Source of the DNA: Eledone cirrhosa
Lineage: Eukaryota
Reading direction: 5' to 3'
Assembly (NCBI GenBank): GCA_964016885.1
Contig: OZ024740.1
Location: 289,478,001 to 289,542,000 of the forward strand
Length of the DNA: 64,000 nucleotides
Shown: in pieces, positions 637-61,503 of the stretch
Position numbering within the stretch: position 1 is the first letter of the stretch
Layout of the letters: each line of letters opens with the position of its first letter
Made by a program: the position numbers and the translations under genes
Notes under the pieces: model-generated
Database searches by the model: none
Seen by the model: the letters and a program-made list of their open reading frames with translations, nothing else
Told to the model about the DNA's origin: nothing

Positions 637-755
637 CCTTGCTGATGATGGAAATCATAGTCTTAAGATGCTTATTACCAAAATCGATAATTGGTGATTA
701 CTAAAATCGATGGTTTGTGTCAAGTTTTGACTTTTAGAAACAGATCTGTCTAAGG
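637..755 (+). ncRNA. Type I hammerhead ribozyme with expanded stem II (88 nt)
   Basis: CCTTG-CTGATGA-[TGGAAATCA...TGACTTTTA]-GAAA-CAGATCTG-TC|TAAGG; palindromic stem III; insert flanked by (TA)n. Confidence 0.65.
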
Positions 756-1162
756 AACTATAGGCTATTTTATCAAGTATATATATATATGTATATATAT
801 GTATATATGTGTGTGTGAGTGTGTGTGTGTATCCCGGGTTCAATCGGGGGTAACCACAGTAAGTAAGGTACTCAATACATAGCCTTTGATCTATTGAGTA
901 CCTTATTGATGATTTCCCGTGAGTGAAACAGTTCTAGTCCTGGAGAAGCCTTTTCTCTCTCTCTCTCTCTCTCTCTCTCTCTCTCTCTCTCTCTCTCTCT
1001 CTCTCTCTCTCTATATATATATATATATATATATATATATATATATATATAGTGAAAAATGGAACGGGAACAAAACAGAGAACAAAGGTTTATTAGTTTC
1101 ACGCTCTTGAGAGTACGGGGTGGTGGTATATATATATATATATATATATGTGTGTGTGTGTG

Positions 1163-2680
1163 TGTCAAGTTACTCTTGAGCGCCATGTAACCTGTTGCTC
1201 GGTTGGGTTATCGGTGCTTAAATCGACAACTTCTACCAAGCTTGCTTGATGAGGAGGGGGTTTCTGTGCACCCTGCGGGATGAAAACGAGACCTACCAAA
1301 TGGTGGAGGAACCAATATATTATCTAGGAGAAGGTAACTCTGATATAAAATCCATAAGGATAGATGGTACTCACCAGTCGTAGTGAAGGCAATCCACCTA
1401 GGAGAAAGAAATCTCTGAAATAAAAACCATTCAGCGATGGCTTGCCCCCAGCCTTAAGTATTTTTACACAGAAAATGTTAAAGCTTCTAATAATTCTAGA
1501 TTTCATGAAATGAATAATCGGTATCTTCCGAACTATGATCTAGTCGGAACGATGGTCATTGATGCTAATCTTTTAAAGAAATCTTAAAACTTGCAATAAT
1601 AAATTGCAATAAAACCTTATCAATGACAACATACAATGCTGGCATATTAGTAAAGGACTTCCACACGAATGAATTTATGAATTCAGCAACAGAGCATAAT
1701 CTAAATATTGTATGTGTTCAAGAACATAGGTTCATAAATGAGGAATAGATAAAATACCATCAGCTTAACTCAGAATTCATACTCATTACATCACCGGCTA
1801 TACTAAATAACTCCAATGCTGCAGTTGGTGGTATTGGTTTACTTGTAAATAAACAGGCGCTTTATTTATTATTGACCGTAGAAACTATTTCATCGCGCAT
1901 AATGGAGGCCACTTTTCCAGGAAATCCCCAAACTATCATAATATTCTGTCTCTCCCCACATAATCAATCACATGAGAATGAAATAATTGCTTTGTATCTA
2001 TCAGACGCTGTGAGTCTTATTTCTTCACAAAGCGTAGTTTTCATCGATGGCAATTTCAATTCACAGTTAGATCTAGATAGGGTATAAGATTGCTATCACG
2101 AATTCACAAACCGCAATAAGTATCTATTTGAATTCATGGAATGTTTCAGTCTAGTGCCAGTAATCAATCGCCTTCAAATGAATCAAAAGGACAAGTAGAT
2201 TAAATGTTGAGTAGAAAAAAGTGGATACTATCTGTTTGCAATGCAGAAGCTTATACAAGTACTTTTCAATCATTAACTTCAGATCATAGTTTCAGCAAAC
2301 ATTAAACTTAGACTATGTGCGTCAAAGAAGGTATCTGATTTTTGAACCATAAATTTCAGATTGTTAAGTCAATCAAAAATCCTACAAAATGTGTATAGTA
2401 TTAAGTGTACAACAAATTCTCTGAACTCATGGAAAGTATACTGGAAGAAATTGATATTCAACAGAAATATGATAGCCTAATAAAATCATACTCAGAGGTT
2501 GTTAACGTTCTATTATAAAAAGGGAAGGCAAAGAAATGGTCTAACTCGCATCATTCCAAACCTGTAACCCAAGCTAAAACATATTGAAAGAACATGCTAG
2601 TATCTTGTGAGAGGAATATGATGTAAAATACAAACTTAGAACTGATGATTGTATACAAGACTGCGGAAGAATCATATATC
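1163..2680 (+). mobile_element. Decayed RTE-type LINE 5' part (5' UTR + APE endonuclease relic)
   Basis: Interrupted frames with APE motifs (TYNA, IVCVQEHRF, GGIGLL, SSRIMEATF, GNFN); 5' UTR resembles the RTE-derived heads at 33400 and 34010. Confidence 0.65.
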
Positions 2681-2681
2681 A

Positions 2682-58800: not shown

Positions 58801-60429
58801 ATCTATGTATGCATGTTACGTATGTTTGTGTATATGTATGTGTGTGTTTACATGTGTAGACCTCCTGTGCCACAAAGAAGCCGATATTTAACAATGGATA
58901 TTCTATTAAGCACAAACTTACGTGAATATAATAGAAATAAAAATAAAATATAGAGGCAAACTTATATTTGCTTCGTAGCACAGCATGTGTGTTATTTATA
59001 TATGTATATGTATATGTATATGTAAATGTATATGTATATGTATGCATATATATTTGTATATGTCAGCATGTGTATATATATTCATATATTACTATATTTG
59101 TGAAAAGGTTTGTTTGAGCACGTGTATGTATGTAAGATTGCATGCGCGATTGTATGTGCATGTGTGCTGGCATTAAATAAACGCCAGCATTATCGTTTGT
59201 AAGTTTCTTATTGGCCCCGTAACATCAATACATATCAGTATTTTTATATGTATGCACCTATATGTGTATGCATAATCATACATATGAAAAAGGCTTGTTT
59301 GAGCCTGTATATATGTATGCATGTCTATGTGAGTATGTGTGTGCGTGTGTTTGTGTGCGTGTGTGAGTGTGTGTGTGTGAGAGTGAGTGAGTGAGTGAGT
59401 GAGTGAGTGTGTGTGTGTGTGTGTGTGTGTGTGTGTGTGTGTGTGTGTGTGTGTGTGTGTGTGTGTGTGTGTGTGTGTGTGTGTGCATACAAATATAAAT
59501 AAGACAAAAAAGTAGCAGAATTTAATCGCAAACAAAAGCCACCTATATAGTTCGTAGGTTTCCATTCCCTTATGGCAGCTACAAATATCAGGTGAACACG
59601 TACATTTTGAACAATATAACCGCAAGCTACAACAGCACTACTCCACAAACGTCACCCTTACATATCGAAATACAAAGTAGATGGGAAATGCCCAAAGAGT
59701 TCAAATACAGTTTTCTATTAAATCAGAGACAATAATTGAAAGGAAGCAAATACAAAATGGCTGCTAATATATTAATGAAATGCTAAACCGGAAGTGAACG
59801 CCAACAACAGTAATAAAAAAGACGGAAAAAAACTACGCAATGCAACATGATATATGGAAGGTGCACTAACACAGCAGTTATCCAGGCGACAACCAATCAT
59901 AGATAATCAACCGATCCTGATATCGATCACAACAGAAGTAATAATGATGTAGATGATGATGATGATCATTATCATCGTCATCGTTGTCGTCACCCTCAGC
60001 ACTACCAAAACCGCAGCCGTCAACAACAACAACAGCAACAATTACATTAGCCAAACAGCAGTGGCAATAACAGCAATTACATTATCCAAACAGCGGTGGC
60101 AATAAAAATCTCAAGAGCCAATCGCAGCAGTTAATCAGACAAACCAATGAGACCATTTGAAAAAAATAGTCATAATCATACGTAAAACACAATGATACAC
60201 ATGTACTTAAACATGCACACACACTTGTACAGAAACATATACATTTATACGAATGGATGTTTGTATATATCCGGTTATATATGTATGTGTATATATATAT
60301 ATATATATATATATATATATATATATATATATATATATATATATATATATATATATATATATATATTTATATATATATATATATATATATATATATATAT
60401 ATATATATATATATATATATATATATATA

Positions 60430-60712
60430 TCCTCAGTGTATGGGAGCATGCCAAAAGTTAGCTCAAAAGTGACACAGAGGAGACTGAGTTTAGCTAGACA
60501 AGCTCACCGACATCCAGAGTTGACATTGCACTCAGTGCTCCTGTAGGAGCCCCTACATGGACACACTAGAAGAGGAAGACCAAGGTTAACGTATGTTGAT
60601 GCCCTAAGGACAGACACTGGTTTGTTGGAGACGCAGGACATGGCAGCGATAATGAGGGACAGAGACCGCTGGAGAGAACTCGTCCATAGATCTCGGGAAT
60701 TTTACCCGCCTT
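60430..60712 (+). mobile_element. 3' fragment of an RTE-type LINE
   Basis: RRLSLA..HRHPE...[17 protein letters not shown]...MRDRDRWR C-terminal motif with an internal stop. Confidence 0.75.
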
Positions 60713-60883
60713 AGATATATATATATATATATATATATATATATATATATATATAAATGAGCGAAGAATAACATGGTTCGGCTGTACGATAGGGTTTATA
60801 TATATACATATATATGTAAATACTATATATATGTATATATGTATGTATATATGAATATATATATATATATATATATATATATA

Positions 60884-61503
60884 TGAAAGACGTAAAATAA
60901 GAAAATTAAAAAAATTAAAAATTAACTTACTTACTAAAATTTTCACTCCAACTAATTAGTTTCTGTAATGGGATAAAGATTGTTACGTAATGTAACTGTC
61001 GAGAATTCATTACGTCATCAGGGAGTCTATTCTCAGCTAAGTCTCCAGGCAATGCGCGGACACTAGGGATTCATATAAAAATAATAATAATTCGGTGGAT
61101 GGAACAGCTAGCGAGGACTGAATTCCAAAGCACTGAAAAAGTTCACTGCCTCTGGTCAAATGGCAGATTCTAAAGAATCAAACACGTGACACTGAGGCTA
61201 GTCGGAAGGAGTGGGGTAGTAAAATGACAAAAGCCTACTACCACTACAATAAGTTAGTAGTGGATTTGGCAGGTTTGCTCAACAAATAAATAATTTGGAG
61301 ATAAATATAGAGAATTAGTTGGAGTGAAAATTTTAGTAAGTAAGTTAATTTATAATTTTTAAAATTTTCTTATTTTACGTCTTTCATATAATTGTTCTGC
61401 ATCCTCCTGCATTGAACCACCTAGGTACTATGACATAACTTATGTATTTGCTAGCATTAGTGTACATCTGTACGCATATGTTCGTAAATATACTAATTCT
61501 CTC
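60884..61503 (-). mobile_element. Diverged copy of the ~555-bp hammerhead retroelement with 5' inversion
   Basis: Homologous to 46190-47246; inverted segment ~61314-61503. Confidence 0.82.
60945..61026 (-). ncRNA. Type I hammerhead ribozyme with compensatory stem II change
   Basis: CGTAATG/CATTACA versus CGCAATG/CATTGCA at 46263; core unchanged. Confidence 0.8.

Follow-up and report, generated by a model that had tools for sequence, protein, structure and literature searches.

The window, meaning the whole 64,000-nt stretch of Eledone cirrhosa DNA that was analysed, holds 20 motifs with a type I hammerhead fold, which self-BLAST and clustering sort into 12 families (A to L). Six of the 20 lie at the 3' ends of coding Penelope-like elements (PLEs) of the Hydra clade (families D, E and H, with four of the six in 5'-truncated copies), eight lie in non-coding tandem units (I, J and K), and six are unassigned stubs (A, B, C, F, G and L). 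The features are as follows.

636 to 756, forward strand: family A hammerhead in a TA-flanked stub, with an 88-nt stem II region and palindromic stem III
23833 to 23929, reverse strand: family B hammerhead, with a 62-nt stem II region and a conserved AG/G internal loop
26770 to 26820, forward strand: hammerhead stub of family C, an old and abundant family, with non-palindromic stem III
26859 to 31580, reverse strand: family D PLE, assigned to the Hydra clade from its motifs
26859 to 27802, reverse strand: downstream pLTR of family D, ending at (TA)n
26900 to 26964, reverse strand: hammerhead of the downstream pLTR, with the TA target 49 nt away
30505 to about 28285, reverse strand: family D ORF for RT plus C-terminal GIY-YIG, with a premature stop at 28502-28504
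30642 to 31580, reverse strand: upstream pLTR of family D
30683 to 30747, reverse strand: hammerhead of the upstream pLTR, some 190 nt ahead of the start codon
31913 to 31961, forward strand: family E hammerhead in a 5'-truncated copy (31729-32004) that keeps the 3' end of a second Hydra PLE family
32127 to 32290: family F stub with a short 5' inversion
32160 to 32246, forward strand: family F hammerhead, with a 60-nt stem II region and AG/G loop
36115 to 36243, reverse strand: family G hammerhead, with a 95-nt branched stem II region (z -3.2); relatives were found
43298 to 46173, both orientations: family H insertion with head-to-head arms at 43298-44309 and 45025-46038, of which only the right one has a tail
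43350 to 43500, reverse strand, and 45836 to 45986, forward strand: family H hammerheads with a 116-nt stem II hairpin
46194 to 47245, reverse strand: 1.6 copies of the 555-bp family I unit plus an inverted arm
46262 to 46345 and 46817 to 46900, reverse strand: family I hammerheads
47354 to 47847, forward strand: family D head-to-head pLTR stub, with an intact hammerhead at 47740-47805 and a truncated one on the inverted arm
47906 to 49046, forward strand: family J retrozyme of 3.4 identical 310-bp units, with an inverted arm (47906-47992) and TA on both sides
48256 to 48302, 48566 to 48612 and 48876 to 48922, forward strand: family J hammerheads
54124 to 54600, reverse strand: 1.1 copies of the 432-bp family K unit, with the octamer ATGCAAAT inside and a hammerhead at 54386-54430
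55404 to 55560, forward strand: family K head-to-head stub, with a hammerhead at 55510-55554
57071 to 57158, reverse strand: family L hammerhead, with a 57-nt stem II region, ending at a (TC)n tract
60886 to 61496, reverse strand: second family I insertion, 83% identical, with an inverted arm and a hammerhead at 60944-61027
C3 of the motifs, forward strand: 642, 26776, 31918, 32164, 45844, 47748, 48264, 48574, 48884 and 55517
C3 of the motifs, reverse strand: 23921, 26956, 30739, 36238, 43492, 46339, 46894, 54423, 57152 and 61021

All 20 sites named in the original prediction match a structural descriptor of the form stem I - CUGANGA - stem II - GAAA - stem III - UH - stem I, in which stem II could reach 140 nt and H17 is never G by construction. 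The first setting of this descriptor returned 19 sites against a mean of 0.12 and a maximum of 2 in dinucleotide shuffles (60 per setting), and allowing a 3-bp stem I returned exactly the 20 listed sites against a mean of 0.04 and a maximum of 1 in 25 shuffles. Stem III is palindromic in 17 of the 20 when G-U pairs are counted. The expectation of about 20 intact cores from about 12 families, usually with a palindromic stem III, is borne out. Stem II regions of 50-116 nt are found in half of the motifs (10/20), and in one group stem II has a conserved AG/G loop; the geometry of this loop, judged by eye, does not fit a K-turn. Folding of the monomer is weak (z above -1) for the motifs at 642, 23921, 26776, 31918, 54423 and 57152. 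No hammerhead model appears among 150 of the 161 Rfam hits at E ≤ 1, these being miRNA models driven by microsatellites.

The motifs had been placed in small non-coding inserts between (TA)n tracts. This placement describes most of them, since a (TA)5+ tract follows the predicted cut on its 3' side, no more than 200 nt away, in 14 of the 20 and four more are inner copies within larger TA-bounded insertions; the exceptions are the motif at 57152, which borders (TC)n, and that at 55517, which is cut off on its 3' side. The size given for the inserts is too small for the motifs at 26956 and 30739, located in the pLTRs of a 4.7-kb coding element, and for those at 43492 and 45844, located in a 2.9-kb inverted insert.

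Judged by its motifs, the element at 26859-31580 is a Hydra-clade PLE. Its two pLTRs are 98.8% identical, and its single ORF carries a YRDD RT followed at the C terminus by IIY..YVG.T..FK.RY.NH; no Pfam family matched this ORF. The motifs RWR and DKT correspond to the RWK-type motif and the DKG to DKT change of Hydra elements, and the ORF contains CDLC (CxxC) and CKH/CRH (CxH) and, like Hydra elements, no CCHH. The linker CNCRDRSKC (CxCX5C) is present in the open copies L080, L087, L090 and L101, and its first cysteine is replaced by phenylalanine in the window copy. Two further Hydra traits are the hammerhead near the 3' end and insertion into (TA)n, while the pLTR-to-pLTR period of 3,783 bp exceeds the usual Hydra length of <3 kb, a descriptive trait. 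Genomic copies of family D (144 scored) share 95-100% amino acid identity and many retain open 745-aa frames. Family E has 698 exact copies and an ORF 47% identical to that of D (L228, L229 and L236). Family H is the 3' region of a third Hydra family, with the ORF upstream of the motif in L008 and L011, and its stem II hairpin folds with a z of -6.5. Family M, whose core has U4A, and a family with a U3-A8 core variant also adjoin Hydra-type ORFs. A second PLE family, Neptune-like, is also abundant in the genome.

Compared with the Hydra-clade PLEs described to date (PMC8557442), family D shares the C-terminal GIY-YIG, the RWK-type and DKT motifs, CxCX5C and CxxC/CxH, and the elements here share the hammerhead near the 3' end, (TA)n targets, pLTRs, 5' inversion and tail. 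Those elements comprise few short (<3 kb) families with a short stem II, whereas several families are massively amplified here, with a D unit of 3.8 kb, stem II of up to 116 nt and U4A or U3-A8 cores. Going by the printed protein and hammerhead, compared by eye, Hydra-1_Obim of Octopus bimaculoides (PMC8557442) belongs to another family.

Families J, I and K have the hallmarks of retrozymes: one hammerhead per tandem unit, non-coding sequence (no stop-to-stop frame of 100 aa in any of the units), and units of 310, 555 and 432 bp predicted to fold as self-paired circles (z -4.2, -6.1 and -4.5 against dinucleotide shuffles). Copy counts were taken from pattern searches of the genome with reversed patterns as controls. 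By this measure a family I 29-mer has 4,189 exact copies and the family J hammerhead has 12,330 copies at ≤1 mismatch. Arrays of J reach about 20 units each and its stem I has a 15-bp extension with internal loops (z -6.2); K is tandem merely as 1.1-1.3 units. Inside the I or J inserts at 30 I and 15 J loci no PLE homology was found, and Hydra fragments lie outside the TA-bounded insert at 3/30 I loci and 0/15 J loci. No RNA data set was listed as containing the J unit, which speaks neither for nor against its expression. Four of the 6 runs that were listed, each of unknown kind, were assembled for this unit: one yielded 611 contigs, at very high depth, and the other three a single 340-nt contig (unit plus 30) each at a depth of 10-15. 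In this procedure tandem repeats collapse in the same way as circles, so the contigs do not distinguish the two.

Of the six stubs, family A has one genome-wide match at ≤1 mismatch, and no relative or second copy was found. The family B stub stops 57 nt 3' of the predicted cut at (TA)n, and family L (166 matches at ≤1 mismatch) is a relative of B and F. A family C 28-mer has 9,426 exact genomic copies, and one locus, L206, is suggestive of an ORF link; the C-type motif that adjoins a Hydra ORF in L248 was discarded as a separate TA-bounded stub. In L235 the RT fragment found 2.7 kb upstream of family F likewise belongs to a separate insertion.

Sampling of 790 kb of the genome gave 54 motifs against 0-6 in shuffles. 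The density of 68 per Mb extrapolates to an estimated 200,000 or so canonical cores genome-wide, or about 340,000 once U4A and U3-A8 variants are added; the U4A core belongs to a family with 19,196 copies or more. Among sampled motifs, 29/36 lie within 200 nt of (TA)5+, against 35% for locus-matched random positions. Across 12 D-type hammerheads, 16 of 21 pairs are altered on both sides and 94% of cells are paired, against 0/500 shuffles and 32-57% pairing in slid alignments, although these values lean towards structure because the set was selected by a descriptor that demands stems. Where loci were chosen by the 3' half, CTGANGA is kept in 26/30 for I, 15/30 for L and 9/25 for C, in counts that take in overlapping, duplicated and 5'-truncated loci. 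Substitutions in the core versus its neighbours amount to 6 versus 12% (I), 16 versus 19% (L) and 17 versus 32% (C), but truncated copies inflate the neighbour rate and these figures were given no weight. Since copies decay, nothing shows selection on single copies. Self-cleavage is predicted from structure and covariation.

In each family, two fixed 3' ends, both bordering (TA)n, lie downstream of the hammerhead. Insertions with two arms have them head to head, each arm using one of the fixed ends. The ends are at +55/+147 in E, +60/+160 in F, +29/+118 in M, +57/+129-143 in D, +61/+197 in H and +20/+87 in C, and in the non-coding families near +135 and +165 (J) and near +70 and +203 (I). Depending on the family, the two ends are about 26-165 nt apart. 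One end per arm was found in the coding families (E 7/7, D 4/4, H 1/1, M 1/1) and in the non-coding arrays (J 9/9, I 12/12, a 595-bp unit with the U3-A8 core 2/2). In E and M, insertion ends never coincide with the cut site: all 25 in E are at +49 or beyond, and in M the same separation from the cut holds for all 21 ends that could be measured among 25. Within arrays, L219 carries a 2-nt deletion in all 21 full units of both arms, L221 has a private A>G in 13/13 full units, and J units differ on average by 0.44 within an arm, 0.56 across arms and 1.56 between arrays. Each J array therefore stems from one template. Higher-order periods of 7 units in L219 and 2-4 units in L220 and L225 fit multimeric templates or later duplication, and not only a monomer circle.

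Since the arrays carry the PLE two-end signature, they provide anatomical evidence that PLE enzymes mobilise retrozymes. No earlier report of this signature in retrozyme arrays was found in print. The tail motif common to several Hydra families was not found in J and I, and because the Neptune-like family is also abundant, Hydra is not singled out as the helper of J, I and K. Taken together, the 20 motifs are probably (roughly 0.8) type I hammerhead folds, and predicted ribozymes, situated at Hydra PLE 3' ends and in retrozyme units that were likely inserted into (TA)n by the same kind of enzyme.

A PLE protein is known to nick both strands of AT-rich DNA and to start reverse transcription at two internal RNA sites, giving a 'tail' (PMC11167929). 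By analogy, a Hydra RT/GIY-YIG protein would nick the TA tract and each DNA end would prime one cDNA at one site. Most cDNAs would end early and leave hammerhead stubs, while on a short repeated template the RT could pass through many units and produce arrays. The hammerhead, probably as a dimer via its palindromic stem III, would cut tandem transcripts to unit RNAs, which may circularise; the cut itself would not set the insertion end. A bolder version is offered tentatively, as the less probable course: that this is the largest hammerhead population yet counted, that a Hydra RT copies retrozymes from circular RNA in a double-primed reaction, with both ends of a nicked TA tract priming, each at one of two fixed sites within the RNA, and rolling round the circle to give head-to-head arrays, and that the long stem II with AG/G loop and the U4A core are working, undescribed architectures.

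Chance matching of a loose descriptor to AT-rich repetitive DNA might be suspected given the long stem II permitted, and a few of the 54 sampled matches do look random, for a background of about 2 per 790 kb. Against the excess over shuffles, the 0-1 match returned in the window by altered-core descriptors, and the genome-wide recurrence of families with reversed-pattern controls at 0, this explanation has next to no probability and is refuted for the motif set, with family A (642) staying single copy. The original prediction went further and held that nearly all motifs are independent non-autonomous ribozyme RNAs moved by a Naiad element in the window. Eight motifs do lie in non-coding tandem units bearing the PLE signature, no ORF link was established for six more (A, B, C, F, G and L), and TA-preferring Naiads are recorded for Octopus (PMC8557442 supplement). 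The six motifs of D, E and H are, in contrast, the ends of autonomous coding Hydra families, and the Naiad label fails on the element itself: the endonuclease is C-terminal in both PLE ORFs of the window and family D has DKT, where Naiads have a GIY-YIG N-terminal to the RT, a DKA motif and a CxC domain; both pLTRs of D carry hammerheads, while Naiads are reported to be without canonical hammerheads, with only remnants in cephalopods (an 'HHR_half_core' is given for Naiad_Ovul by Craig et al., PMC8557442). B, F and L were also considered as the missing Naiad ribozymes, but the upstream sequence common to copies of F (up to ~950 nt) or of L showed no ORF. The Naiad account is thus refuted for D, E and H and for the label, and is very improbable overall. 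The broader claim that the motifs belong to TA-targeting retroelements stands, and they occur far above chance.

Two other explanations concern function and origin. The folds could be kept as a structural element, such as a protein-binding or dimerisation site of the PLE RNP, with little or no cleavage in most families. The abundant U4A family and the E and M ends away from the cut would agree with this, as would the poor in vitro cleavage of PLE hammerheads (PMC4209133) and the dispensability of cleavage for PLE insertion in vitro (PMC11167929). A separate point against the ribozyme step of the main reading is that among predicted Xenopus retrozyme dimers only 1/9 cleaved in published tests (bioRxiv 10.64898/2026.07.22.740005). 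Unrelated families nevertheless keep the full core, including H17 (non-G by descriptor) and a compensating U3-A8, as catalysis requires, and retrozymes built in the same way in coral, mussel and axolotl do cleave and form circles (PMC7229834), which makes a purely structural role unlikely. Less likely again is that J, I and K each began as a pLTR fragment that inserted once and grew locally into a minisatellite by unequal crossing-over, which would require no multi-unit RNA template, a possibility discussed in bioRxiv 10.64898/2026.07.22.740005. Near-identical units within each array and the higher-order periods are what such expansion would give, but the arrays are dispersed (the first 100 J matches listed fall in 12 arrays over 47 Mb), the two head-to-head arms of L219 are both multimeric, terminate at the two fixed sites and have the private deletion in common, and no ORF was found next to J or I units at the loci retrieved.

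The association of hammerheads with PLEs and retrozymes is already known. In the 2017 work cited in PMC6765202, the motifs are likewise type I with a palindromic stem III, fall into many consensus families per genome, come mostly as single motifs from truncated PLEs with opposite-strand pairs, and show a covariant U3-A8. That work gives 2,000-9,000 motifs per genome, compared with the estimate of 200,000 here, and its helix II of 6-8 bp contrasts with the long stem II regions here; the axolotl count is 126,247. Animal non-LTR retrozymes (PMC7229834; bioRxiv 10.64898/2026.07.22.740005) are similarly built: their tandem units are non-coding, measure a few hundred bp and hold a single type I hammerhead, their circles are predicted to be self-paired, and PLEs have been proposed as helpers. 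Their link to PLEs came from co-occurrence and pLTR homology, compared with the two-end insertion signature here, and the main texts of both papers do not mention the tail, head-to-head arms or cephalopods. Expression and circles were demonstrated for the retrozymes of PMC7229834, whereas the present units are known from DNA. Poseidon PAc of Anolis (PMC11167929) resembles the present case in its two internal RT start sites giving a tail, its AT-rich targets, the nicking and extension of both strands, and insertion ends off the hammerhead cut; it belongs to another clade, its start sites are adjacent where the ends here are well apart, and its published assays are without a non-autonomous passenger. 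No earlier description of the long stem II, AG/G loop or U4A core was found in the literature. The same literature gave no octopus hammerhead census, retrozyme tail signature, extended stem II or U4A, though its supplements may list cephalopod motifs.

The enzyme that moves animal retrozymes, and circular RNA as its template, have been matters of proposal since 2020. Since near-identical arrays with the two-end signature and young open-frame Hydra elements occur in one genome, the helper question becomes directly testable in vitro. The set also supplies natural hammerheads with a very long stem II and variant cores that standard descriptors miss. Ribozymes receive no mention in the main text of PMC13282606, and part of the sequence between TA microsatellites here is ribozyme-bearing PLE debris that repeat annotations leave unflagged.

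A structural descriptor specifying stem I, CUGANGA, a stem II of 6-140 nt, GAAA, stem III, UH and stem I, in that order, located 19 hammerhead motifs in the window, compared with a mean of 0.12 in dinucleotide shuffles (n=60). Permitting a 3-bp stem I wherever stem III is palindromic yielded exactly the 20 sites of the original prediction, which had proposed some 20 intact cores in about 12 families, and 0.04 in 25 shuffles. The 20 motifs do form 12 families, lettered A to L. Of the 20, 17 have a palindromic stem III and 10 a stem II region of at least 50 nt. Altered-core descriptors gave 0-1 matches in the window, and among the 150 of 161 matches listed, Rfam detected no hammerhead there. 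Decayed or core-less stubs also occur, all at TA tracts and several palindromic. One further family, M, carries a CAGAAGA core (U4A); it had been overlooked because the copy in the window breaks off at the core.

Hammerhead motifs (positions of C3) and stubs in the window
A, 642; B, 23921; C, 26776; D, 26956, 30739 and 47748
E, 31918; F, 32164; G, 36238; H, 43492 and 45844
I, 46339, 46894 and 61021; J, 48264, 48574 and 48884; K, 54423 and 55517; L, 57152
26350-26420, minus strand, M stub (family also at the loci L037 and L287-L311 of the same genome)
830-950, 25460-25777, 26192-26300, 26550-26616/31599-31665, 49156-49385, 55200-55290 and 61534-61800, stubs of C, D, F, K and two further stub families, decayed or lacking the core

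The population of hammerhead motifs is real and extends beyond the window. A sample of 79 stretches of 10 kb, taken at round, evenly spread coordinates on the larger contigs and thus non-random and without small contigs, contained 54 motifs in 790 kb, spread over 30 of the 79 stretches, against 0-6 in ten shuffles. The sampled density of 68 per Mb (bootstrap 44-96) extrapolates, net of background, to about 195,000 motifs (125,000-280,000) in the 2,996-Mb assembly. For comparison, 126,247 hammerheads are reported for axolotl in 28 Gb (PMC7229834) and about 9,000 minimal motifs for Xenopus (PMC4209133). Motif density in the window is about 4.6 times that of the sample, the TA shares being close (4.9% and 4.4%). 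Within the first 60 stretches, (TA)5 or longer lay within 200 nt of 29 of 36 motifs, compared with 35% of locus-matched random positions. Variant cores were present in the 790 kb as well, with 12 CAGANGA (shuffles 2-3) and 34 TTGANAA (shuffles 2-11). Genome-wide pattern counts were J 12,330, C 9,426, I 4,189, E 698, L 166, F 141 and A 1, and a 29-mer of M has 19,196 exact copies; reversed-pattern controls were 0 for all direct counts, and exact patterns undercount the older families.

Genomic copies decay, CTGANGA being retained at 26 of 30 loci in I, 15/30 in L and 9/25 in C. In M, a C stands before AGAAGA at all but one of 25 pattern loci, and stem I is complete at 17. Rare natural core variants have been reported by Perreault et al. 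(PMC3088659), and Schistosoma PLEs are known to carry a U3-A8 variant; U4A at such a scale was not found in the literature searched. Among 12 D-type motifs, a set picked by the structural descriptor, 16 of 21 pairs show two-sided changes, including 9/9 in stem II; none of 500 shuffles scored as high, and pairing reaches 94% vs 32-57% in slid controls. Folding predicts a 116-nt stem II hairpin in H (z -6.5), a branched stem II of 95 nt in G (z -3.2) and a 15-bp stem I extension in J (z -6.2). Six of the 12 folded motifs are no more stable than shuffles, as expected since such motifs may need dimerisation. The stem II extensions of B, F, L and relatives have in common an internal loop, 5'-G AG U-3'/5'-A G C-3', located in 46 of 64 sequences by a search anchored on the loop motif itself. 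The loop reads AG/G in 35 and sits on a helix of varying sequence (CAG/CUG, UGG/CCA, CGG/CUG). Stem II domains this large were not found in the literature, the supplements of which may list long-stem variants.

Part of this population belongs to coding PLEs, among them the D element, in which two 98.8% identical pLTRs, each with a D hammerhead, flank an ORF that encodes an RT and, at the C terminus, a GIY-YIG domain, with one premature stop in the window copy. The Hydra clade is defined by a C-terminal endonuclease (EN), RWK, DKT, CxCX5C, CxxC/CxH, canonical hammerheads and (TA)n targets, while in Naiads the EN is N-terminal, the motif is DKA and canonical hammerheads are missing (PMC8557442). 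The D element shows every Hydra-defining feature, and its unit exceeds the usual 3 kb. The original prediction had named it a Naiad; its C-terminal EN, DKT and hammerhead-bearing pLTRs place it by sequence in the Hydra clade instead. The 144 scored copies share 95-100% protein identity and many have open 745-aa frames, so the family is young. Among 120 matches listed, the only relatives with a species name were from Argonauta hians (best 39% identity). Together with the repeat landscape, these relatives may point to an octopod host. Hydra-1_Obim of Octopus bimaculoides likewise has a hammerhead and a (TA)n preference (PMC8557442 supplement).

Coding elements and other repeats
26859-31580, minus strand, D element
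63000-64000, minus strand, 3' end of a second PLE with a C-terminal GIY-YIG EN, 84% identical to an element in L237 and called Neptune-like from a linker motif judged by eye; decayed hammerhead-like motif at 63227
L237:1350-5500, broken near-complete Neptune-like copy; family matches in 6 of 79 sampled stretches
L054:662 and 5892, minus strand, Hydra PLE, each pLTR with a U3-A8 hammerhead
15200-18625, minus strand, non-LTR retrotransposon with a 1141-aa open frame (RVT_1, zf-RVT; C-terminal restriction-like nuclease by eye); inverted partial copies beside it at 13128-15090 and 20330-21112
2551-12560 and 37665-40700, APE-RT LINEs (Exo_endo_phos) in several broken copies, with ORF1 remnants
324-500, 10872-11063, 21112-21292, 23409-23581, 26012-26176 and 40725-43128, a ~190-bp SINE-like repeat in some dozen copies, among them a 199-bp tandem pair (41628-42045)
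52776-53345, transposase-like fragment without a Pfam match, adjoining a 244-bp palindrome at 53415-53658

Other families are also Hydra 3' ends. In L228, L229 and L236, long copies of E contain an ORF with 47% identity to D; a Hydra ORF lies upstream of H in L008 and L011; and M stands beside Hydra ORFs in L037 and at 7 of the 25 pattern loci. One locus (L206) shows C fused head to head with a Hydra EN end, and the ~950 nt of upstream sequence common to F copies contains no ORF. The window also has non-coding tandem units of 310 bp (J), 555 bp (I) and 432 bp (K), which qualify as retrozymes at the sequence level. Of the 20 motifs, 8 thus belong to retrozyme units (J, I, K) and 6 are ends of coding Hydra families (D, E, H); the reading of all the motifs as separate RNAs does not hold for the latter. 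The six others, A, B, C, F, G and L, were placed in neither group. Elsewhere the genome has a 467-bp unit and an abundant 595-bp unit whose core is U3-A8 and whose stem II region measures 58-60 nt; the 595-bp unit forms head-to-head arrays that end at +80 and +245 nt downstream of the predicted cut (L235:1-2011, L009, L005, L008, L130, L072). The octamer ATGCAAAT occurs in the K unit and the 467-bp unit (window 54124-54600; L070:800-1270; L062) and is absent from the J and I units. Newt satellite 2 has an snRNA-type promoter with an octamer. At L090:1-420, a tandem unit that resembles J in diverged form has a U3-A8-type core and shares with J the block GCTATTTCAGAGC, which lies between J's two ends.

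Each family represented by enough loci shows a pair of fixed 3' ends that lie past the predicted cut and abut (TA)n. For E, 21 of 25 end at +55 and 2 at +147; F has 14 at +60 and 10 at +160 (29 of 30 measurable), M has 12 at +29 and 9 at +118 (21 of 25 measurable), and D, H and C follow the same pattern. No measurable copy of E or M ends at the cut, the search pattern lying wholly 5' of it. In two-armed insertions of the PLE families, the arms are head to head and each has a different end: E 7/7, D 4/4, H 1/1, M 1/1, C 2/2 measurable and F 3/4 (one arm truncated). Protein-free arrays do the same. In J, each arm has its own end, near +139 or +165-170, in 9/9 two-armed arrays (11 were examined; one was one-armed and one cut by the stretch end). 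One end per arm is also the arrangement in 12/12 clear two-armed I loci (the others of 19 distinct loci being one-armed or tangled) and in 2/2 for the 595-bp unit. Mobilisation by TA-targeting PLEs, as originally proposed, is supported by these ends. Such a tail with inversion was described for PLEs by Craig et al. (PMC8557442). According to Frangieh et al., who call the tail unique to PLEs, it arises because the RT starts at two internal sites, and nicking and extension affect both strands of the target (PMC11167929).

In J arrays, private variants recur in every full unit and on both arms (21/21 full units in L219, 13/13 in L221). Differences between units average 0.44 inside an arm, 0.56 from arm to arm and 1.56 from array to array; each array therefore has one template lineage. 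Higher-order periods of these variants (7 units in L219, 2-4 in L220, 2 in L225) mean that the template need not be a monomer circle. Downstream of the cut, YYGAGYRCY, a motif defined after the fact, is present in D, F, C, M and K; the H and L copies inspected carry it with a single mismatch, and J and I lack it. The motif is a candidate recognition site of the Hydra RT. In the published coral Hydra-2_Amil sequence, TTGAGCACT follows the hammerhead.

From the anatomy, ends, copy numbers and covariation observed here, a course of events may be proposed. PLEs nick AT-rich DNA and initiate internally at two sites (PMC11167929). The Hydra protein would cut a TA tract and each DNA end would prime at one site. 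Most cDNAs would end within a few hundred bases, leaving hammerhead stubs, and repeated templates would give arrays. Because the motif is close to the start sites, the hammerhead survives almost any 5' truncation, which would explain the high motif density. More tentatively, hammerheads acting as dimers might cut tandem transcripts so that units circularise. Against this step are the poor cleavage by PLE hammerheads (PMC4209133), the dispensability of cleavage in vitro (PMC11167929) and the cleavage of 1 of 9 Xenopus dimers (bioRxiv 10.64898/2026.07.22.740005).

The window hammerheads would work like those of PLE pLTRs (PMC4209133) and animal non-LTR retrozymes (PMC7229834). Derivation of animal retrozymes from PLEs has been argued via co-occurrence and pLTR homology (bioRxiv 10.64898/2026.07.22.740005); tails, head-to-head arms and cephalopods are absent from the main text of that study and of PMC7229834. 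No octopus hammerhead census was found in the literature, the supplements of which may list cephalopod hammerheads, and a PLE insertion signature on retrozymes was not found in the literature searched. The main new evidence is this signature on protein-free tandem units, with the Hydra protein as one candidate helper of J, I and K.
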